Assembly: GCA_021850805.1 (NCBI GenBank)
Contig: JAJZKO010000002.1
Span: 39,520-103,519 of the forward strand
Reading direction: 5' to 3'
DNA: 64,000 nucleotides
Origin: Candidatus Micrarchaeota archaeon
GTDB taxonomy: Archaea; Micrarchaeota; Micrarchaeia; Micrarchaeales; CABMGC01
The position numbers and the translations under genes are program-made. Below the pieces are notes generated by a model that made no database searches, was not told the origin of the DNA, and saw only the letters and a program-made list of their open reading frames with translations. This document shows positions 9,213 to 55,855 of this stretch, piece after piece. How positions within the stretch are numbered: the first letter of the stretch is position 1; each line of letters starts with the position of its first letter.

Positions 9213-9310
9213 GGGCTTCTGGCGCAACGGTAGCGCGCCTGCATGGCATGCAGGAGGTTGCGGGTTCGAAACCGGCGATTACCTCGCCTGAGAAAATCCC
9301 GCGAAGTCCA
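9213..9310 (+). tRNA. tRNA-Ala (anticodon GGC) with ~26-nt insert in the T-loop
   Basis: - Acceptor stem GGGCTTC/GAAGTCC with a G3:U70 pair and A73.
- D-arm GCGC-AACGGTA-GCGC.
- Anticodon arm CCTGC-ATGGCAT-GCAGG.
- The T-stem GCGGG (9260-9264) pairs with CCCGC (9298-9302), but 33 nt lie between them instead of 7.
- Removing about 9271-9296 restores the T-loop TTCGAAT. Confidence 0.8.
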
Positions 9311-20387: not shown

Positions 20388-21002
20388 CTACTTCGCCTTC
20401 ATCTCCACTTTCGCTTCGAAATCGGAGACCTGATACTTGAATTCCTCGTTTGATTTTATTAATCCTTTCTCCTTCAGGAATTCCCTTGCAAGAAGGTAAT
20501 AAATCAGGGCCAATGCCCTTCTGCCCTTGTTGTTGCACGGTATAATCATATCAACAAACTTTACCCAGTTGTCAGTGTCGCAGAGCGCCACGAGTGGTAT
20601 GTTGGTCTTGTTCGCCTCCTTCACTGCCTGCTTCTCATTCCTTGTATCGCTGACAAGTATTATCTCGGGCTCAATGTAGTCTTCCCTGTTCGGGTTTGTG
20701 AATATCCCTGGCATTACCCTGCCCTTAAGGAGCGTTGCATTTGTTATCTCTGCGAATTTTGATGCAGCGGAAATGGCATATACTCTGGATGCAGTCACAA
20801 CAATATCCTTCGGCTCATACTGGGCAAGCATCTTTGCCGCGTCCTTTATCCTGCTGTCTATTGTGGAGAGGTCAAGCATATACAGCCCATCCTCCCTTAC
20901 TTTATAGACAAACCTCTTCATTCCCGGCGTCCTTATCTTCGTGCCTATATGTATCCCTACCTCCAGATACTCCGCCTGATCCACAAGAAAATTGTTCTCC
21001 AT
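20388..21002 (-). CDS. rps2: 30S ribosomal protein S2 (uS2)
   Basis: 204 aa. The pattern EYLEVGIHIGTK...DGLYMLDL...IVVTASRVY is typical of archaeal S2. Confidence 0.9.
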   Translation of the reverse strand: MENNFLVDQAEYLEVGIHIGTKIRTPGMKRFVYKVREDGLYMLDLSTIDSRIKDAAKMLAQYEPKDIVVTASRVYAISAASKFAEITNATLLKGRVMPGIFTNPNREDYIEPEIILVSDTRNEKQAVKEANKTNIPLVALCDTDNWVKFVDMIIPCNNKGRRALALIYYLLAREFLKEKGLIKSNEEFKYQVSDFEAKVEMKAK

Positions 21003-21026: not shown

Positions 21027-21136
21027 CGGGGTCGCCGAGATTTTCATGGCATAAAGCCCTTTGAATTCCCTAATATTTTATACTCGGGTCATGTGCTCCC
21101 TAAGCACAGAGCCTAACCAGACTAGCAGACGACCCC
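21027..21136 (-). tRNA. tRNA-Pro-like gene (anticodon reads AGG) with 36 extra nt in the T-arm
   Basis: All elements are read on the minus strand.
- Acceptor stem GGGGTCG/CGACCCC.
- D-arm contains GG.
- Anticodon arm TGTGC-TTAGGGA-GCACA, with G37.
- The T-stem CCGAG/CTCGG encloses 43 nt.
- A canonical TTCAAAT loop appears only if TATAAAATATTAGGGAA and GGGCTTTATGCCATGAAAA are both removed.
- The position between rpoN and S2 is where a tRNA is found in other archaea. Confidence 0.6.
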
Positions 21137-21190
21137 GTCCGCAGCAATATATTGATACTAAATGCTTTTTATCCTTATCGCACCCCGTCT

Positions 21191-21391
21191 TTACTTCATG
21201 CTGAAATTTATAATCTCATCTATGAGATCGACATGGCTTATCAGCATGCGCCTGCAGCAATACCTGCTTACCTTCAGTTCTCCAAGAACCTTCTCCGGGT
21301 CTTCCTTGTTCTTGTTGACCCTCATGTCAAATTCCTCCCATCTGTCCGCTACTACCTGCCCGCAAGAAAAGCATCTTACCGGTATCATCAT
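21191..21391 (-). CDS. rpoN: DNA-directed RNA polymerase subunit N (Rpo10)
   Basis: 66 aa. It contains MMIPVRCFSCGQVV...YCCRRML, the zinc-binding Rpo10 signature. Confidence 0.92.
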   Translation of the reverse strand: MMIPVRCFSCGQVVADRWEEFDMRVNKNKEDPEKVLGELKVSRYCCRRMLISHVDLIDEIINFSMK

Positions 21392-21952: not shown

Positions 21953-22389
21953 ATCTTATATCCAAGCTTGCCGGAAAGCTCCTTTATGCTTATGCATGTC
22001 TCAAAGACGCTCTCCTCCCTCTTTGCCTCTATCTCGCTGTATTTGATATCCTTGAAATTCTCTGGCACGCCTATATACACCTTAAGCCTGCTGTATGCCG
22101 CCTTTCCTGTTGCCTTCTTATAAGGCAGCATGCCACGCACTATTCTTTTGACGAAGAAGTCTGGCCTTCTTGACCAGTAAGGAGAGTGTTCGGGATTTGC
22201 CTTGTCCTGAAGCTCTATGTGGTGCTTGTACTTGCCGTATATGCTCTTCAGATGGCCGCTTATTACGAGTTCCTCTGCATTGAATAGGTTTACCTTGTTG
22301 CCCTGGAGGAGCAGCTTAGCTACTCTTGTCGATAGCCTGCCAAGAACATAACCTCTGCAATCTATGTTGTATTCCTGCACAAAAATCAC
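21949..22389 (-). CDS. rpl13: 50S ribosomal protein L13 (uL13)
   Basis: 146 aa. It contains IDCRGYVLGRLSTRVAKLLLQG. It overlaps S9 by 4 nt and L18e by 4 nt. Confidence 0.9.
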   Translation of the reverse strand: MIFVQEYNIDCRGYVLGRLSTRVAKLLLQGNKVNLFNAEELVISGHLKSIYGKYKHHIELQDKANPEHSPYWSRRPDFFVKRIVRGMLPYKKATGKAAYSRLKVYIGVPENFKDIKYSEIEAKREESVFETCISIKELSGKLGYKI

Positions 22390-22733
22390 ATAATAACTTT
22401 TATCTTGTCCTTTTTAAGCATTTGCCCTATGTCGACTATCTCACATCCGCTGCGCTCAAGCTTCTCCTGTGCCGAAGCCGAGTAGCTTATGGCAGAGATC
22501 CTGAACTTCTTGCTTATGCTGCCAACACCAAGCACTTTTCCAGGGACTACTATATCCGAGCCGTCTTCGGCGAGCATATCTATCTTATCCAGATTTACCG
22601 CTACCATCTGCCTCTTCGGCCTTGAGGCGAGCTCTGCAATCCTCTTTGCTGTTTTGCTTGCCCTTCCCGCGCCTGAGGCTAAGCTTATCCATTCTGCCTT
22701 GTCCTTGTTTTCTATTCTCCTTGTTCCTGCCAT
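22386..22733 (-). CDS. rpl18e: 50S ribosomal protein L18e
   Basis: The start was moved to ATG 22733 (MAGTRRIENK) because the longer ORF (to 22775) would overlap the tRNA-Leu gene. The body VVPGKVLGVGSISKKFRISAISYSASA is L18e-like. Confidence 0.85.
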   Translation of the reverse strand: MAGTRRIENKDKAEWISLASGAGRASKTAKRIAELASRPKRQMVAVNLDKIDMLAEDGSDIVVPGKVLGVGSISKKFRISAISYSASAQEKLERSGCEIVDIGQMLKKDKIKVIM

Positions 22734-22750
22734 TGCAAAACCTTTCCATA

Positions 22751-22836
22751 TGCGGGGGGTGAGATTTGAACTCACGCAAGTGCTAAACTACTGACCCCTC
22801 AAGCCAGCGCATTTGACCATGCTCTGCCACCCCCGC
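22751..22836 (-). tRNA. tRNA-Leu (anticodon GAG)
   Basis: Read on the minus strand: GCGGGGG-TG-GCAGAGCATGGTCAAATGC-G-CTGGC-TTGAGGG-GTCAG, then a long variable arm, then GTGAG-TTCAAAT-CTCAC-CCCCCGC-A. This is a canonical class II tRNA with discriminator A73. Confidence 0.92.
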
Positions 22837-22837
22837 G

Positions 22838-23413
22838 TTAATATTTCTTTACCTCTTTGTATACTTCTTTTATGTCATCTGTTATTATACTTAACGCCTT
22901 TCTCAGCACCTCTTGGGGTGGCAGCTGTCCGAAACTCTCTATGTAAAACTCAAAATCTGTATCGGAGAGCGCCTTATAGGTAACCAGCGCAGGCTGGAAC
23001 TTTGCGCTCCTTGCCGCATTGTTCATAACCGCCTTGCCGTCAAGCCTTATGCTCTGCCCCTCCCTTAGCTTCATTATCGGTATGTTCTCGTTAGCTACCC
23101 TTACTTCCTTGTCACTGCTCCTGAGGTCCTTAGAATACACTACAGTAGGTCCCGAAGCATTCATTGAAAAGACTATCTGATCGTTCTTTGTATATCCGCT
23201 CAGCGGTGTATGTATTGGCACCAGCCCTATGCGGTGCGCAAGATATTCATCAAACATCGCACCTGAGTTTTCATACAGGGTAACACTGTCTATAGCAAAA
23301 GTATCAACGCTGTTTATTGCAATCCTTCTGAGCGAATTTGCAAAGTTAAAACTGATGCCACTCAACTTGAACCTAATCGAATTCTTATTAGACTCTATCA
23401 TTTCCAGCTTCAT
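22838..23413 (-). CDS. rpoD: DNA-directed RNA polymerase subunit D (Rpo3)
   Basis: 191 aa. It contains FANSLRRIAINSVDTFAIDSV...EYLAHRIGLVPI. It is shorter than many Rpo3 proteins and has no obvious Fe-S cysteine cluster. Confidence 0.88.
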   Translation of the reverse strand: MKLEMIESNKNSIRFKLSGISFNFANSLRRIAINSVDTFAIDSVTLYENSGAMFDEYLAHRIGLVPIHTPLSGYTKNDQIVFSMNASGPTVVYSKDLRSSDKEVRVANENIPIMKLREGQSIRLDGKAVMNNAARSAKFQPALVTYKALSDTDFEFYIESFGQLPPQEVLRKALSIITDDIKEVYKEVKKY

Positions 23414-24944: not shown

Positions 24945-26195
24945 CTATCTCTTGATCCTGCCATGGCTCGAGGATAAATCCTTCGCAGCCTCAGCGCAGA
25001 GAAGGTTAAGCTCTCCTGCAAGGCAGACCGCAGCTATAACCTCAGCAAGCTGCAGTCTTGATGTTCCCTCAGGATCATTATCCCCGTACAGACCCATCAT
25101 CTTCAAAACTTCCATCTGTGTCTCTCTCTTAGTGCCGCCACCATAAGTCCCTACCTCTATTGAAGGCAGATAACACGAGATATACAGACCGCCTCTTACA
25201 GCAGTAGCATCGGTAAGAGCCTGCGCTCCTTCAACAACCTGTGCCATATCCTGCCCGAGGGCTAGATACAAAGAGGCAAGCATGTTTGCAACATGCCCGT
25301 TAAAACCATGTGAACCGGCAAGTGCCGAACCGCTCAGGTTCTTTGACTTGTTCAGATCTGCCACTGCTTCAGGCTTAAGTCCAAATCTCTTCTCAAGAAG
25401 CGCTGCAGGTATGAACATATCTACAATCACCGAAACTCCCCTGCCTTCTATAAAATTTATCAAAGCGGGTTTTTTGTCTGAGCACATGTTTCCCGACTCA
25501 CTTACTATCCCTGCCTCTATCCCCTTGCTCTTGCCGAACTCAATTACGATTGCATCAGATGCCATCTTGGAGGCTATGGTGACCATATTCATTCCCATCG
25601 CCGCCCCAGTTGTAGCCCTGAAACGGAGATGCACATCCCTTCCTGATGGGTAAGGCCTGCATTCTATAAACCTCCCATGCCTGGTGCTCCTGGAGAATGC
25701 CTTCCTGAGTATCTCCTGCCCTGCAGCGCTGGACACGAAAGCTGAGAATGCCGCAGCCTCCTTGACGTTTCCGGTCCTTATAAGCACATCTCTAGTCATA
25801 CCATCCCTTATTACTGCGGCATTTATCCCGCCTGCCTCATTCGATGCAGATATTCCCCTGGATATTCCCGCGACGAGTTTGCCCTCCGTAGTCGCAAGAA
25901 GTATGGGATAACTTCTCGAGGCATGCATACCATTGACCTTTATCTCCCCTGCATATCCAAGCGGTACGTGCACTGCTCCAACAGGGTTCTCTATATTCCT
26001 GTCAACAGCATCATTGAAGTCGAGGATTCCTGATCCTACGGCAGAGAGGCTGCATCCGAACTTCTTTTCCAGATAAACCCTCCTTATCATAGTTGCTGTA
26101 TTGCTGTCAATGCCAAGGGACTTCTCCAGGGCGTAAAGTTTTAATTCCCCGTTCTCCATCCTCTTCAACGCCTCATCAATATTTTTCTTATCCAT
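24945..26195 (-). CDS. hmgA: HMG-CoA reductase, class I type
   Basis: 416 aa. It contains ENPVG, LATTEGKLVAG (catalytic Glu), GAAMGMNM, CSDKKPA (catalytic Asp), VGTYGGGT and a C-terminal SSSHG (His). Confidence 0.9.
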   Translation of the reverse strand: MDKKNIDEALKRMENGELKLYALEKSLGIDSNTATMIRRVYLEKKFGCSLSAVGSGILDFNDAVDRNIENPVGAVHVPLGYAGEIKVNGMHASRSYPILLATTEGKLVAGISRGISASNEAGGINAAVIRDGMTRDVLIRTGNVKEAAAFSAFVSSAAGQEILRKAFSRSTRHGRFIECRPYPSGRDVHLRFRATTGAAMGMNMVTIASKMASDAIVIEFGKSKGIEAGIVSESGNMCSDKKPALINFIEGRGVSVIVDMFIPAALLEKRFGLKPEAVADLNKSKNLSGSALAGSHGFNGHVANMLASLYLALGQDMAQVVEGAQALTDATAVRGGLYISCYLPSIEVGTYGGGTKRETQMEVLKMMGLYGDNDPEGTSRLQLAEVIAAVCLAGELNLLCAEAAKDLSSSHGRIKR

Positions 26196-26204
26196 AAAAG
26201 CACC

Positions 26205-27650
26205 TCATATAAGTTTCTCTTTTGTATTTGCCAGCCCATCATTATAAGCCAGCCTGTGCTGATTCAGGCCTCCTGCAAGAGCCGCAGCCGCTGTAAATGC
26301 CGCAACACGGATAGAATTAGATCCAGGGGCTGCATCTCTGCGCAGACCCATTATCGCTTCGCATTCCTTTCTTGTCGGGGAGTCCAACCCTTCGCTCCCC
26401 CACTCGAAATTGGCAAGTGTAACAGAGTACATTATGCCTGATGCGCCATTCACCTTATAGGGCTCCGCATCAGTAACGCATGATGAAGATAATATCGGAG
26501 GAGAGCCCGCGACTGCAGCCATCACTCCAGCTATTATCTCCGGCTCCATTCCACACATATGCGCTCCAGCTCCCAATCTCTCCCTCCAGAGGTGATTCTT
26601 AGAGTAACTCATAATATGCATATCCTCCGCACCGCCGTGTCCTCCTCTTCCGGAGATTTCGTGCACTATATATGATTCTGGAAGGAAGACAGACGCTTTA
26701 ACCTTCCTGCCGCGTATGCTCTTGGCAGAAACTGCCATGTCCCCGTCTTCGCCTCCGGCCAGCCAGAGGCTCCTGTGGGGTATCTTTTCCGCATCAAGTT
26801 TCGCAGTAAGGAAGTTCCTCAGTAGTATGCCTGTAGCATAGGTAGCTATCTCATGCCCGTAAAAATCCCCGTGCATCCTGTATATGAAATTCACCGAGAG
26901 CTCATGCCTATCTCCATTCTTCGCATAAGAGCACGTTATCTCTCCAAGCACACCACCTTTCTGCGAGAGTATCCTGTTAGCAGCATCGTATATATCGGAT
27001 AGGAATTCCGCTGAAGTCATCGCTCTGCGCGCTGCCTCCGCATCTTCAAAATTTTCGAACATGAAAGTCGGCGATCTAGTCGCCACAGAATCCCTTTCCG
27101 CATAAACTTTCACCGTTCCGCTTGAACCGTAATCAACAAGCTTCTTAATCATCTTTATGCCAAAGCTCACTCCTTCAGTAACTCCACCCCTAAAATTACA
27201 CATCGGTATAAATTCCGAGGCGCCAAAACCAGCTTCCTTGTGCCCGTTTTCATTTACCTCAACCTCGATGCTTACCGGCCCCGCAATTGTTATCCTGTCC
27301 CCGCCTATGTATTGCACATATTCCGGTTTTCCTGACTCTGTGGCAAGATCCCAGTGGGCAGAATTCCTCAGGTAGTCAAGCCTGACTCCGTTTCCGGATG
27401 CTTCCATATGCCTCTCCACTCCCCGTCTAAGCACTTCTCCGGCGTAGTACTGATAAAAAGCGGCAATCTCATTCTCTGCGAATGCAGAAGTATATGCTCT
27501 TACCCTGCCCTGTTCGAACCTCTTCTCGATCTCCTGTGGAACCTTGTGGAGCGGCACACGCCCCCTGAAAACTCCCTCTGCAAGGGAGTCAAGGACGCCT
27601 TCAAGCTTCTTTCTCTGCGCAGGGTACCTTCTCTCTATCTCGTAAGCCAT
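26205..27650 (-). CDS. divergent HMG-CoA-reductase-fold paralogue lacking canonical catalytic residues; function unknown
   Basis: 481 aa. By eye it aligns along its length to the adjacent hmgA. Examples are VATRSPTFMFENFEDAEAA against the HMGR GMTR.P..RF motif, IRGRKVKASVFLPE against IEGRGVSVIVDMFIP, and EAIMGL...AAFTAAAALAGGLN against EVLKMMGL...IAAVCLAGELN. However, TTEG is replaced by NFRG, DAMGMNM by RMHGDFYG, and SDKK by VSAKS. Confidence 0.6.
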   Translation of the reverse strand: MAYEIERRYPAQRKKLEGVLDSLAEGVFRGRVPLHKVPQEIEKRFEQGRVRAYTSAFAENEIAAFYQYYAGEVLRRGVERHMEASGNGVRLDYLRNSAHWDLATESGKPEYVQYIGGDRITIAGPVSIEVEVNENGHKEAGFGASEFIPMCNFRGGVTEGVSFGIKMIKKLVDYGSSGTVKVYAERDSVATRSPTFMFENFEDAEAARRAMTSAEFLSDIYDAANRILSQKGGVLGEITCSYAKNGDRHELSVNFIYRMHGDFYGHEIATYATGILLRNFLTAKLDAEKIPHRSLWLAGGEDGDMAVSAKSIRGRKVKASVFLPESYIVHEISGRGGHGGAEDMHIMSYSKNHLWRERLGAGAHMCGMEPEIIAGVMAAVAGSPPILSSSCVTDAEPYKVNGASGIMYSVTLANFEWGSEGLDSPTRKECEAIMGLRRDAAPGSNSIRVAAFTAAAALAGGLNQHRLAYNDGLANTKEKLI

Positions 27651-31445: not shown

Positions 31446-32102
31446 GTGCAATTAAATTTCATGGACATGTGGCAGAGCTATGAGAAAAGGCGCTTGGCTA
31501 CTGATTTTGGGACCCGCCGCATCCTACTGTCCAGCGGAGAAAGGTGGAATGCCTCATTAAACCGGGTAGCGCCTAAAGCGGTGAGCCTTGAATCTAACGC
31601 AACAACCAAACTTAAATATACAGAGCAGGCAAGGTACATCATCGCCAAGGACATACTTGAAGATTTGCTGGTAACAGCATACGATGTAAACTCATTTTAC
31701 TGCTTTGCAGCAAGGATTACAGACGAGATGCCGCATAAGATAATCCGCGAACTAAACGCATTCAGGAAAGAGCTAAGGAACCCTAATGTGGAGATGAGGT
31801 TCATAGGCTTTCAGAATGGGGCAAGGAACCTTACCCAGCACATAGATTCCATAAAGAGGCTCAATATCGGCCATTCTGCAGAGTTTGACTTGTTTGGAGC
31901 AGACAGGAGGCATATAGTTATGGATACCAAGGTAGGCAAGCCCTATAATCTTCTTCTGCTAAACAGGCTATACCGCCCCGGGGAGCTATCTACAATAGTG
32001 TTAAAGCCGCAGCCGGCACCTTCGCCGCCCAGTTCCCAGCCGCCAAATTCCCCAAGGCAGCAGGACAAAGAAGCCCAGGCGCCGCCTACAAATAAAGCTT
32101 AA
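31446..32102 (+). CDS. hypothetical protein with proline-rich C-terminal tail
   Basis: 218 aa from GTG 31446 (ATG at 31461 is possible). The C-terminus is KPQPAPSPPSSQPPNSPRQQDKEAQAPP. I recognised no confident family. Confidence 0.5.
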   Translation: MQLNFMDMWQSYEKRRLATDFGTRRILLSSGERWNASLNRVAPKAVSLESNATTKLKYTEQARYIIAKDILEDLLVTAYDVNSFYCFAARITDEMPHKIIRELNAFRKELRNPNVEMRFIGFQNGARNLTQHIDSIKRLNIGHSAEFDLFGADRRHIVMDTKVGKPYNLLLLNRLYRPGELSTIVLKPQPAPSPPSSQPPNSPRQQDKEAQAPPTNKA

Positions 32103-32637
32103 AGCAGAAGACGTTGCTATAAACCGGACCTTCGCTATGGAGTTCGCTTTTCTTGATATAAAGCTTGTCCACCCTGAAGGTTCCGAATTCAGTATCCTTA
32201 TATGTCGATAACAGTGCATATATCTTATCCAAGCCCTCGAGGCTCTTTACCCTGCCAAGGGTCACATGCGGTACGAACTCCTCCTCATGCTTAACTTCTA
32301 TCCCATATGATTCCAGATATTTGCTGAAGTCCTCGTTTATCCTTCGTATGTTTTCCCCAGAATCATCTACATTCGCGTATACCACCCTGGGTATGCGCGT
32401 CCCGAAATAAGAGACGCCAGCGACACCTACTCCGAAGCTTTTTCGTAGCGATCCACTAGGCCTATAATTCTCGACAGACTTCAGGCTCTTATGTCCAAGA
32501 TCTCCTATAAACTGCACTGTTATGTGTATGTTCTCTTCCTTCACCGCAGAGAAGCCTTCAACATCAAATTCCTCGGCAACCCTGCTTAGCCTGGCCCTGA
32601 GTTCCACAGGAAGATCTATCGCAAGGAAAATCCTCAT
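32086..32637 (-). CDS. thpR: RNA 2',3'-cyclic phosphodiesterase / 2'-5' RNA ligase (2H phosphoesterase, LigT/ThpR)
   Basis: 183 aa with two HxT motifs (HITVQF and HVTLGR) at the spacing typical of the 2H superfamily. Confidence 0.8.
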   Translation of the reverse strand: MRIFLAIDLPVELRARLSRVAEEFDVEGFSAVKEENIHITVQFIGDLGHKSLKSVENYRPSGSLRKSFGVGVAGVSYFGTRIPRVVYANVDDSGENIRRINEDFSKYLESYGIEVKHEEEFVPHVTLGRVKSLEGLDKIYALLSTYKDTEFGTFRVDKLYIKKSELHSEGPVYSNVFCFKLYL

Positions 32638-43182: not shown

Positions 43183-44337
43183 TTATGGCTGCATCCAGTC
43201 TATCTCATAGTATTCGTTCTTGCTTCCCGAGATTTTTATCTGCCTTACCTTGTAATATGTAACCGAAGTCTCCCTGTCAGCTATGGCAACTATAAGTTCC
43301 ATCTTCTTCTCTTTGGCAGCCTTTATTGCTCCTGCAAATTCTGCCCCGCCTATGTACTCCTCCTCGCTCAGCGAGAGCATGCAGTATCGCGGAGCCGCGC
43401 TGTCAGGGTTTTCCGCATCGCCTCCCTTCCTATGGTAAAGTATAAAGTCTATACCCACCTTTTTCGCCACCGTGCCTCCGGTAACGGCCAGTATGAACGT
43501 CTTCCTCACAGAATGTGCAACCCTTATTACCCTCGCCCATTCCGATATAAGCAGCCTAGACTCACGCGGGAATACGTGTATCACATGCTTTGAGTGTATC
43601 CAGTCCTTTGCCCCCTCCTTAACCGGCTTTGCGCCTGGAAAATACAGTCTGAAATGAGTGCCGAACTTGAAGCCTGTCTTTATCACGTAACCTTTCTCCC
43701 TCCAGTCCCTGTAGACTTCGTATAAGCTTAGGAAATCAGCCCTCCTTGCCTTGGCAAGACGGATCAGCTCCTGCTTGCTTATATTAAGCTTCAGCATGCC
43801 CATCTCCATCAGGAAGAGGCTCTCGTATACATCAAGTTTGTTGAGCTGCCCTCTCTCGGCAGCTTTGTAAGATCCGTACTGTCCGAACCAGAGAGTCTCA
43901 TAAAGCTCCTTACCTTTCTCATTATCGTCCACTATTGATATGAGGTCGCTCTTGAAGAAAATCCCTGATACAGAGTAATCAGGAAGCGATAACCCCGCTT
44001 TCGGGTAGGATTTCACAGGGGTCTTGTCAGGCGGCTTATATTCCGATGCAGTCCCTCTTACTACCAGCCCCCTGTCCCTCCAATCCTTATATGTGAAGTA
44101 TCTCGCAGTGAATTTCTTGTCGCTCCAGAATCTTGCTGCGATATCATTAAAGGAGACGCCTCTGCCCATACTGGTGCATTTTGCGTTCCTTACGTCTATA
44201 AGATACAGCGCCTCTTCAGGGATGAGCATTGTGCGCCTGCCTGCCTCTTCCCCGAAGAATCCTTTCTTAAGCAGATCCTTGGATGACTGGTCGCTTGCAA
44301 ATATGCTCTTCCTTGACTTAAACTCTATCTCAAGCAT
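43183..44337 (-). CDS. endA: tRNA-splicing endonuclease EndA, long multi-unit form
   Basis: - Catalytic unit: YEVYRDWREKGYVIKTGFKFGTHFRLYFPG...HSKHVIHV...AHSVRKTFILAV, carrying the Y/H/K triad.
- N-terminal side: a partial EndA-like unit (YFTYKDWRDRGLVVRG).
- C-terminal side: a structural-unit-like segment (ELIVAIADRETSVTYYKV).
- The start was set at ATG 44337, 4 nt after the GT4 stop. The ORF is open up to 44490. Confidence 0.8.
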   Translation of the reverse strand: MLEIEFKSRKSIFASDQSSKDLLKKGFFGEEAGRRTMLIPEEALYLIDVRNAKCTSMGRGVSFNDIAARFWSDKKFTARYFTYKDWRDRGLVVRGTASEYKPPDKTPVKSYPKAGLSLPDYSVSGIFFKSDLISIVDDNEKGKELYETLWFGQYGSYKAAERGQLNKLDVYESLFLMEMGMLKLNISKQELIRLAKARRADFLSLYEVYRDWREKGYVIKTGFKFGTHFRLYFPGAKPVKEGAKDWIHSKHVIHVFPRESRLLISEWARVIRVAHSVRKTFILAVTGGTVAKKVGIDFILYHRKGGDAENPDSAAPRYCMLSLSEEEYIGGAEFAGAIKAAKEKKMELIVAIADRETSVTYYKVRQIKISGSKNEYYEIDWMQP

Positions 44338-44341
44338 CCAA

Positions 44342-45505
44342 TCATTTCCCGGGATTTGCATTATCTTCTTCCTTCCCCTTTTTAATCCTTTCCAGCTCGG
44401 CATCGAAGAGCGAGAAAAACCTTTCCCAGGTGTACTTCCTTTCCACTTCCCTTCTTCCTTCCTTTCCCATGCGCTCGGCACTCTTAGCATCCTTGGCCAG
44501 AAGAAGCATCTTCTCCGCCATCTCCTGAGGTGAGTTTACAAGGAAGCCAGTCTTACCATCCCTTATCGTCTCCGTCGGGCCTCCTTCATTGACGGATATT
44601 ACGGGCTTCGAAGAAGCCATGGCCTCAAGGGGTATAAATCCAAAGTCCTCATTTATTGCAGCGAACATCACAGCCATGGCTCCGCTGTAAAGTTTGGTGA
44701 GCTTGCTCTCATCGACATTAGTCATTATCTGTATCTTGTAACCTTCAGCCATCTTCTTTATGCGGTTCATGTAAGCCTGGTGCTCCGGATCCTTGGAGAG
44801 GGTGCCGGCTATTACCAGCTTGAACTTCCCTCTTCCGTCCTTCTTCTCAAAACGCTTGAAGGCGTCTATAACATAATCCTGCCTCTTATTTACCAGTATC
44901 CTCGAAGGATAAAAAAAGTAGTCTTCGTAAGAGGAGTTCTTATACTTCTCGACGTCTACACCTGGGTTTATAACCGTTGCCTCTCTGCCGTAATACTTGC
45001 GTATCCTGCCCCTTGTCGTCTCGCTGTTTGTTGCAATGCCCTCAAGATCCTTCACTATCTTGTTGGCTATCATCTTGTACGCCCTGGCAAAAGTTGCATA
45101 TATTATCTTGTCCCCGTATCCCCTCCCCTTCATCCTTGTGGAATAGAGATCGTACACTTCCCTCGGAGGCGTATGGCAGTACCACAGGACACGCTCGTTC
45201 TTGTGCCGTATCCATTCGCTCGGGGATATATGCGGGTTGAGAACATCATAGTCCTCATCTATCCGTATGTTGTAAAAATTATATCCATACTTAAGCCCCT
45301 GCGAAGCCCTATACGGGAGCCTGCCCTGGAGCGGCACATCCTTGCCTATCTTCCTTATATCGAGCTTCCCGAAGTCTTCAAAGGAAGAACCCTTCTCATA
45401 TTCGAGGGTGTATATGGGCGCCTTGTAGTGCTCTGCTATCTTCAGGAGCACCCTGTCGACACCGCCTCTAAGGTTGATATACGGCTGAAGTACAATTAGC
45501 TTCAT
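44342..45505 (-). CDS. GT4-family glycosyltransferase
   Basis: 387 aa. It has the C-terminal Ex7E region EDFGFIPLEAMASSKPVISVNEGGPTETI. Confidence 0.85.
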   Translation of the reverse strand: MKLIVLQPYINLRGGVDRVLLKIAEHYKAPIYTLEYEKGSSFEDFGKLDIRKIGKDVPLQGRLPYRASQGLKYGYNFYNIRIDEDYDVLNPHISPSEWIRHKNERVLWYCHTPPREVYDLYSTRMKGRGYGDKIIYATFARAYKMIANKIVKDLEGIATNSETTRGRIRKYYGREATVINPGVDVEKYKNSSYEDYFFYPSRILVNKRQDYVIDAFKRFEKKDGRGKFKLVIAGTLSKDPEHQAYMNRIKKMAEGYKIQIMTNVDESKLTKLYSGAMAVMFAAINEDFGFIPLEAMASSKPVISVNEGGPTETIRDGKTGFLVNSPQEMAEKMLLLAKDAKSAERMGKEGRREVERKYTWERFFSLFDAELERIKKGKEEDNANPGK

Positions 45506-55081: not shown

Positions 55082-55855
55082 TCAGTATCCGCGTATCCCA
55101 GCAGCCACAAGCGCTTCCTTTTCCGCGAATGATATTGAGGCAGGCACAATTATGCAGAGTGCCTTTCCTGCAAGTCTGCTGCCGTCGTAAATCCTCATCT
55201 CATCAAGAGTGGCAGAGAACCTTACCGCACTATCCTTTCCGGCATCGGCCATTACTATGAACCTAATAGTCTCCAGCCTATTCCCACCGGACGCCTTGAT
55301 TGCATTCCCAAGTATCTCCGCAGCTTCTGCAAGCGTCATCGGGGTCCCTGGTTTGCGTATGTCAAGCAGAAGTAGCGTATGCTCTCCATTCTCAAGATTC
55401 CTCTCCACGTTCTTCAGGAAAGATATCGGCCTATAATTCTCCGACCAGAAGGGCAGGGTAACCGTAGGTCCGAACCTGTAGAAATCGAGGCCGCTCTCCC
55501 CTATCGCAGCAGAAAATACAGATGAAGAATGAAGAACGACAGTTTCTATCCCATGCCTCTGCGCTTCTGCGATTATTATCTTATGTGTCGTGGCTATAAG
55601 CGGATCCCCTCCTACGAGAATGCCTATGTCGCTGTTCTTGGCAGCCTTAATCGTATCCCACACCCTGTCCTCCAGGGCATTTCTCTCAATAGGCAATATT
55701 GCCTTGCCTAGCATATCGCTTAAGAAGGAGAGGTATTCGCCTGATACAAAAGAAGTATACGAATCAAAATATATGGCACCGCAGCGCTTCAGGTAATCCA
55801 AGGACCTCAGCGAGATATCCCCCTTCTCCAGCCCGAGACCTGCCAGTACGAGCAT
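55082..55855 (-). CDS. dph5: diphthine synthase
   Basis: 257 aa. It is a tetrapyrrole-methylase-fold protein with MLVLAGLGLEKGDISLRSLDYLKRCGAIYFDSYTS and VGGDPLIATTH. Confidence 0.85.
   Translation of the reverse strand: MLVLAGLGLEKGDISLRSLDYLKRCGAIYFDSYTSFVSGEYLSFLSDMLGKAILPIERNALEDRVWDTIKAAKNSDIGILVGGDPLIATTHKIIIAEAQRHGIETVVLHSSSVFSAAIGESGLDFYRFGPTVTLPFWSENYRPISFLKNVERNLENGEHTLLLLDIRKPGTPMTLAEAAEILGNAIKASGGNRLETIRFIVMADAGKDSAVRFSATLDEMRIYDGSRLAGKALCIIVPASISFAEKEALVAAGIRGY

Follow-up and report, generated by a model that had tools for sequence, protein, structure and literature searches.

The window, by which we mean the whole 64,000-nt stretch of DNA analysed here, derives from a tiny acid-mine archaeon of the ARMAN type belonging to DPANN. 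Its minus strand carries a tRNA-like gene in which the T stem encloses 43 nt and the anticodon reads AGG, with adenosine at the wobble position. How can a regular T loop be obtained from this gene, and what would such an anticodon read? A preliminary description, made from the letters alone, had proposed that two introns are removed from the T loop. We compared the locus with its relatives, examined the folding of the junctions and inspected the RNA-processing genes encoded nearby. According to our best overall explanation, it is very probable that the locus represents a functional pre-tRNA-Pro(AGG) gene of Micrarchaeota. The features of the locus are listed in Table 1.

Table 1. Positions of the tRNA-Pro(AGG) gene, its parts and the splicing endonuclease gene in the window. 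Arrows in sequences in the text mark junctions.
Feature	Position	Strand	Remarks
pre-tRNA-Pro(AGG) gene	21027..21136	-	110 nt; 74 nt when spliced; CCA not encoded
5' exon, tRNA positions 1-53	21083..21136	-	acceptor 5' strand, D arm, anticodon arm, 4-nt variable region, CCGAG
Anticodon A34-G35-G36	21099..21101	-	A34 = 21101; loop TTAGGGA with G37
Intron 1, position 53/54, TATAAAATATTAGGGAA	21066..21082	-	17 nt; relaxed BHB; missing at the exact junction in many relatives
Middle exon TTCAAA (T54-A59), T loop	21060..21065	-	invariant in all homologues
Intron 2, position 59/60, GGGCTTTATGCCATGAAAA	21041..21059	-	19 nt; near-strict hBHBh'; missing at the junction in L023 and 9 metagenome contigs
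3' exon: T60, CTCGG, CGACCCC, discriminator G73	21027..21040	-	based on sequence, ARAGORN on the spliced form and covariation
A/T-rich box GATAAAAAG, candidate archaeal TATA box	21165..21173	-	29-37 nt ahead of the 5' end of the tRNA
Three-unit epsilon2-type tRNA splicing endonuclease (EndA)	43183..44490	-	PF01974 (catalytic domain) and two stretches of PF02778 (N-terminal type); expected to excise both introns

Architecture and detection of the gene

Read on the minus strand, the gene has the layout GGGGTCG-TC-TGCT-AGTCTGGTTA-GGCT-C-TGTGC-TTAGGGA-GCACA-TGAC-CCGAG-[43 nt]-CTCGG-CGACCCC-G. All cloverleaf elements named in the preliminary description can be recognised, including the acceptor stem (GGGGTCG/CGACCCC), the anticodon arm (TGTGC-TTAGGGA-GCACA) and the T stem (CCGAG/CTCGG) around the 43 nt. 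It had also been stated that no single excision would yield a T loop with T54-T55-C56, and enumeration bears this out: none of the 8 possible joins of TATAAAA... to ...TGAAAAT starts with TTC. After excision of both segments ARAGORN called a tRNA-Pro(agg) with the T arm CCGAG-TTCAAAT-CTCGG and exactly the 74 nt predicted earlier for the mature form. The unspliced gene was missed by ARAGORN, and Rfam searches, run both at the gathering threshold and with E<=10, returned no tRNA match at the locus, only chance matches to snoRNAs. No other tRNA-Pro was found by ARAGORN or Rfam in the 64-kb window. Running ARAGORN with intron options and lowered thresholds produced noise, and we rejected the resulting 'tRNA-Pro(ggg)' at 55456-55580, which is located within an ORF of 257 aa and lacks the features of a tRNA.

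The spliced form contains the conserved tRNA residues U8, A14, G18G19, U33 and U54U55C56. Of the features expected of a tRNA-Pro, G35 G36, G37 and the pairs G1:C72-G3:C70 are present and invariant in 18 distinct homologues. The usual discriminator of archaeal tRNA-Pro is A73. In the window this base is G73 (21027), as had been read before. Since the discriminator varies among clearly orthologous, conserved genes, we do not regard G73 as an argument against proline identity. Within the clade of genes carrying A34, many have G and others have A (L005-L012 and some metagenome contigs); in genomes of the G34 clade it is almost always A. Such variation across orthologous tRNA-Pro genes is unusual.

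The D arm (21110-21127) is weak as well. Its stem has two Watson-Crick pairs (U10.U25, G11-C24, C12-G23, U13.G22), and this weak stem is kept in all orthologues. It echoes the weak, single-pair D arms of tRNA-Pro(CGG/UGG) from ARMAN-2 (PMC3239211).

The gene is part of a conserved archaeal cluster of minus-strand genes in the order rpoD (22838-23413), tRNA-Leu(GAG) (22751-22836), L18e, L13, S9, rpoN (21191-21391), tRNA-Pro and S2 (20388-21002). A/T boxes comparable to the candidate TATA box are present at about -28..-38 in most homologues.

Homologous genes and single-intron alleles

We compared the locus with a further 15 assemblies of this species (NCBI MAGs, JGI, ENA and Logan); 11 hold the gene whole, and in 2 it is truncated by the end of a contig. 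The 110-nt pre-tRNA is identical throughout, the only exception being an A>T SNP in intron 1 that occurs in 4 assemblies. For a wider comparison the S2 protein was searched against GTDB species genomes, giving 46 loci, nearly all labelled Candidatus Micrarchaeota or Micrarchaeia and two of them 99% identical. An orthologous tRNA-Pro lies upstream of S2 in 37 of these 46 genome loci, and a metagenome scan added 37 contigs with the tRNA-Pro.

The resulting set of about 70 syntenic homologues contains genes with both introns, with the first only or with the second only, and the junctions are always the same. In alleles missing intron 1, CCCGAG↓TTCAAA is contiguous and only the 59/60 intron is kept. 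In alleles missing intron 2 (Table 1), TTCAAA↓TCTCGG is contiguous and only the 53/54 intron is kept. These natural alleles prove the two junctions that the preliminary description had derived from the sequence. T60 is invariant like the middle exon, and the introns vary in length between 11-22 nt (intron 1) and 12-33 nt (intron 2), with free sequence except for the boundary motifs. The presence of intron 1 is patchy in both the A34 and the G34 clade; intron 2 is near-universal.

We also assessed covariation in 18 distinct spliced sequences. Standard pairs make up 95.5%, with compensatory changes at 8 pairs; this level was reached in 0 of 500 shuffles, and slid controls were 36-48% paired. Covariation, invariant exons and single-intron alleles together lead us to regard as excluded that the locus is a pseudogene, that it has a single intron or that it forms an unspliced giant loop. 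The decayed pseudogene that the preliminary description had named as a possible refutation is thus at odds with exons conserved, with covariation, across Micrarchaeota.

Each of the introns alone appears to have been lost or gained repeatedly among the orthologues. Among the roughly 70 orthologues (L002-L046 and L062-L098) none lacks both T-loop introns, which might reflect selection to keep at least one of them or just slow loss. In two metagenome contigs (L094 and L070; Ga0081529_109254 and Ga0074075_13628) intron 1 contains an internal duplication, ATTAAACGGGAA-TTAACGGGAA, so that two candidate 3' splice motifs, each reading CGGGAA, follow one another in tandem.

Splicing motifs of the two introns

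Sequence alone leaves the junctions ambiguous, as 53/54 could also be 54/55 and 59/60 could also be 56/57, 57/58 or 58/59. A BHB consists of a 4-bp central helix and 3-nt bulges and is cut after the second bulge nucleotide. The BHB register picks 53/54 and 59/60, and this cutting rule is in accord with the intron-less alleles, from which the junctions follow independently. Both introns, folded as had been suggested earlier, lie in BHB-type motifs (for motif classes see PMC6379350), that of intron 1 being relaxed.

For intron 2 the T stem serves as outer helix, followed by the 3' bulge AA↓T, the central helix TTCA/TGAA, the 5' bulge AA↓G and an inner helix GGC/GCC that is offset by one extra A. 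This BHB is the MFE fold (-12.3 kcal/mol) once intron 1 is removed in silico. The central helix has 4 bp in all 34 distinct genome-derived homologues, where U54-A57 pairs with intron UGAA (or with UGAG/UGGA including G.U). As bulges these homologues have AA↓N and AA↓U, or GC↓U in combination with a UGAG helix.

The motif of intron 1 has a 4-bp central helix in 18 of 19 distinct genome-derived sequences (C48-G51 with CGGG; CUCG/CGGG in L027), a 3' bulge AA↓U54 and a short outer helix formed by positions 44/45-46 with 55-57. The sole exception is the species of the window, whose motif is the weakest of all homologues. Here the outer helix is TGA/TCA, the 3' bulge AA↓T and the central helix CCC/GGG plus G.A: the intron reads AGGG instead of CGGG, and G.A replaces the closing C-G pair. 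In the MFE fold the 5' site, instead of occupying a clean bulge, lies inside an A/U helix, and the energy of the designed BHB-1 conformer exceeds the MFE by 4.4 kcal/mol. All metagenome copies with intron 1 end in CGGGAA and none shares AGGGAA. The two introns are only 6 nt apart in one loop, and their motifs share U55-A57.

A second tRNA with a T-loop intron is present in the window, a tRNA-Ala(GGC) at 9213-9310 on the plus strand with G3:U70 and a 26-nt intron (9271-9296) at 59/60. ARAGORN called this gene only after excision of the intron, and the Rfam match at 9213-9284 is a mis-modelled partial one. The central helix of its intron, TTCG/AGAA, has 3 bp plus G.A, the same relaxed variant as in intron 1 of the tRNA-Pro. 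A likeness between the 3' boundaries of both genes (ATGAAAA↓T and GAGAAAA↓T) had been noticed previously. It is accounted for by the BHB constraint, which requires the 3' end of the intron to pair with T54-N57 and a 2-nt bulge to remain ahead of the cut.

The splicing endonuclease of the host

A gene for an epsilon2-type tRNA splicing endonuclease is located in the same window, 22 kb from the tRNA-Pro. The ORF comprises 435 aa; the likely start is Met44, giving a protein of 392 aa, and the 43-residue basic N-terminal extension is probably untranslated. The protein aligns end to end with PDB 4FZ2, the EndA of ARMAN-2, with E=7e-153 and 58% identity over 381 positions. Conserved are the ASL lysine Lys161, the triad Y236/H251/K282 and the dimerisation residues K224 and D357 (for the roles of these residues see PMC3488258, PMC3239211). 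From its sequence, the enzyme with its ASL lysine appears specialised for relaxed motifs. In vitro, ARMAN-2 EndA cuts strict as well as relaxed BHBs, among them the relaxed 59/60 T-loop intron of tRNA-Cys; the substrates used were tRNA-Ile and tRNA-Cys only (PMC3239211, PMC3488258). A 2025 paper on EndA structure makes no mention of tRNA-Pro.

Because its EndA is only 58% identical, the host is not ARMAN-2 itself; no ARMAN-2 record occurs among the S2-bearing contigs, the GTDB loci and the best 120 S2 homologues. The host is possibly ARMAN-1-like, as suggested by the figures published for ARMAN-1 EndA (62% identity, 390 aa; PMC3239211).

RtcB was not identified among the 10 of the 64 window ORFs that were scanned. 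The window also encodes a LigT-like 2H phosphoesterase of the 2'-5' RNA ligase family (32086-32637, minus strand; PF02834, PF13563). This family acts on RNA 2',3'-cyclic phosphate ends, which are of the kind made by the endonuclease.

The AGG anticodon and proline codon usage

The preliminary description had pointed to AGG as an anticodon unexpected in archaea. The anticodon is real, and A34 is fixed in a clade. The register of the anticodon loop is the same as in the G34 orthologues (TTAGGGA versus TTGGGGT), with covarying 5-bp stems, and by synteny the A34 gene stands where other genomes have the G34 gene. A34 was found in 14 species-level genomes as well as in 37 of 37 metagenome contigs, which were collected with a pattern of this clade's tRNA body that permitted either A or G as base 34. 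In a neighbour-joining tree of S2, which as a single-gene tree is indicative only, the A34 genomes form one clade, together with L023 on a long basal branch, and the G34 genomes form its sister clade. The tRNA-Leu of the window keeps G34 (GAG), so the switch to A34 is proline-specific.

Codon usage shifts along with the anticodon. The ratio CCT/(CCT+CCC) is 0.76 in the window, 0.82 in the other A34 genomes and 0.63 in G34 genomes. The difference from G34 genomes has a Fisher p=3e-5 for the window and p=1e-10 for the window and the other A34 genomes pooled, although the contrast is between two clades and thus amounts to one evolutionary event. No difference between the window and G34 genomes was observed for the T/C ratio of the seven other four-fold boxes (p=0.43). 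A34 genomes are depleted in CCC, without enrichment of CCA. Among the 700 proline codons of the window CCT is the most frequent, with 251.

According to reviews, Archaea have neither ANN anticodons nor A34 deaminases (PMC8007984). Unmodified A34 in AGG has been reported to read CCU and CCC (PMC11066159; Chen et al. 2002, cited there). None of the 64 ORFs in the window, which covers about 6% of the genome, carries a CDA zinc motif. Since AGG reads both codons without modification, no archaeal deaminase is known, the window has no CDA ORF and codon usage points in the same direction, A34 most likely stays an unmodified adenosine.

Proposed maturation and alternative explanations

We propose that the primary transcript carries both T-loop introns, at 53/54 and 59/60, and that the host's own epsilon2-type EndA would cut each BHB between the second and third nucleotides of its 3-nt bulges. 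The exons would then be joined by a ligase, and CCA would be added. Most likely intron 1 would leave first, as its motif uses C48-C50 and U55-A57 and thereby competes with the T stem; its removal should let the T stem form and create the near-perfect BHB of intron 2. The model assumes that intron 1 is cut efficiently. The mature tRNA-Pro would read CCU and CCC, and unmodified A34 is expected to favour CCU over CCC, in keeping with the depletion of CCC, specific to proline, in A34 genomes.

Other explanations concern the fate of the transcript. The C-to-A change that turned CGGGAA into AGGGAA may have crippled splicing of intron 1, leaving a decaying copy while another tRNA reads CCU and CCC. 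The unique helix of 3 bp plus G.A, a change shared by no metagenome copy, and the 4.4 kcal/mol by which the BHB-1 conformer lies above the MFE would agree with this. The exons are intact, however, the pre-tRNA is invariant in the sampled assemblies of the species bar the one SNP in the intron loop, and the frequency of CCT in the window speaks against decay; moreover, the same helix in the tRNA-Ala(GGC) intron is evidently tolerated, and an EndA apparently specialised for relaxed motifs is at hand. We therefore give the decaying copy only a slim chance. Far less credible is that the 43-nt insert holds one intron whose removal leaves a T loop of non-canonical form, or that the T loop is kept in an expanded state in the mature RNA. 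RNAfold predicts a stable two-hairpin structure for the unspliced T region, yet single-intron relatives build the same TTCAAAT loop from the same pieces, TTCAAA and T60 stay invariant next to flanks that vary in length and sequence, and a T54-T55-C56 loop is out of reach of any single excision. An assembly or sequencing artefact, whether at position 34 or in 21040-21082, where the preliminary description had allowed for an error, has practically no probability at all: the sequence is identical in independent NCBI MAG, JGI, ENA and Logan assemblies, and about 70 other genomes and contigs have the homologous structure.

Given two introns and a functional gene, A34 could be converted to inosine by an unrecognised archaeal deaminase, and the tRNA would then read CCU, CCC and CCA like eukaryotic tRNA-Pro(IGG). 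A34 in bacteria and eukaryotes is nearly always deaminated (PMC11066159, PMC8007984), it is stably fixed in the clade studied here, and Fujishima et al. saw a parallel to the strategy of eukaryotes in the A34 tRNAs of ARMAN-4/-5 (PMC3239211). We nevertheless consider inosine unlikely. An A34-specific deaminase is not known in Archaea (PMC8007984), and the missing CDA-motif ORF points the same way, if weakly in view of the small share of the genome in the window. Depletion of CCC without enrichment of CCA fits an adenosine preferring A:U better than I34, and a deaminase would be unnecessary for a tRNA that already reads CCU and CCC unmodified (PMC11066159). Somewhat more doubtful still is the specific case of an archaeal wobble inosine made in DPANN by an unrecognised deaminase independent of TadA/ADAT. 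If true, both the wobble inosine and the A34 deaminase would be firsts for Archaea.

Comparison with known systems

The architecture of the gene is of a published kind: two T-loop introns at 53/54 and 59/60 were described for pre-tRNA-Pro(GGG) of ARMAN-2 (Candidatus Micrarchaeum acidiphilum), and an A34 tRNA-Pro for ARMAN-4/-5 (Fujishima et al. 2011, NAR 39:9695, Fig. 1C; PMC3239211). With ARMAN-2 the present gene has in common the phylum, the family of CCY readers, the intron positions, the BHB-type motif and the epsilon2 type of EndA. It differs in the anticodon, AGG instead of GGG, in the lineage, with an EndA of only 58% identity, and in intron 1, which by the published description is a strict hBHBh' in ARMAN-2 and is relaxed here by a G.A. 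ARMAN-4/-5 (Parvarchaeota) likewise have an archaeal tRNA-Pro with wobble A but belong to another phylum. They possess tRNA-Pro(AGG) and tRNA-Leu(AAG) and lack the G34 genes (PMC3239211), in contrast to the window with its tRNA-Leu(GAG), where the switch affects proline only.

Multiple-intron tRNAs are also found in Thermoproteales and other archaea with (alpha-beta)2 EndA (Sugahara 2007/2008; reviewed in PMC4033280, PMC6379350). There too, several BHB or relaxed introns occupy non-canonical positions including the T loop, and intron content co-evolves with a broad-specificity endonuclease. That enzyme is a heterotetramer, as opposed to epsilon2 here, and the present introns differ in their close spacing within one loop and in the exon nucleotides shared by their motifs. 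Regarding the anticodon, eukaryotic tRNA-Pro(AGG), for which the G34 gene was lost, likewise encodes A34 in the proline box. Eukaryotes deaminate it to IGG by ADAT2/3, whereas codon usage here argues for unmodified A. Unmodified A34 reading CCU and CCC is known from a Salmonella proL mutant and from an orthogonal tRNA(AGG) derived from M. jannaschii (Chen et al. 2002; Schmitt et al. 2024, PMC11066159). These are laboratory constructs or mutants, whereas AGG is the natural, clade-fixed state here.

The current understanding is thus unchanged, and our results extend the work of Fujishima et al. 2011. New are a Micrarchaeota clade that joins the two-intron architecture with A34, the fixation of A34 together with a proline-specific codon shift from CCC to CCU, the patchy and repeated presence or absence of intron 1 in both clades as opposed to the near-universal intron 2, and the relaxed G.A variant of intron 1 specific to the species of the window. 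The locus illustrates how far tRNA genes can fragment given a splicing endonuclease of broad specificity, and removal of one intron appears to build the recognition motif of the other. With both or either intron, strict or relaxed motifs and an internal duplication, the about 70 orthologues represent a possible substrate panel for epsilon2 EndA specificity and splicing order. The A34 switch provides a rare natural archaeal ANN anticodon and a simple test of whether unmodified A34 serves a family box. As standard tRNA finders miss both the tRNA-Pro and the tRNA-Ala of the window, annotations of Micrarchaeota MAGs will under-count tRNAs.

Additional observations

Three genomes labelled Micrarchaeota or 'Marsarchaeota' (L026, L029 and L031) have no tRNA-Pro between rpoN and S2. 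The gap is filled by an A/T-rich spacer of ~230 nt with a conserved hairpin, CAGGGTTTATGCCCTG.

In the window the tRNA-Leu(GAG) gene overlaps the start of the mechanically called L18e ORF (22386-22775, minus strand) by 25 nt, and the true start of L18e is probably a downstream ATG (MAGTRR...). Further along the minus strand, the ORF at 24945-26195 resembles HMG-CoA reductase by eye. The adjacent ORF at 26205-27650, also on the minus strand and encoding 481 aa, gave a weak match to PF00368 (E=3e-8) and may be a divergent paralogue of this HMG-CoA reductase-like gene.
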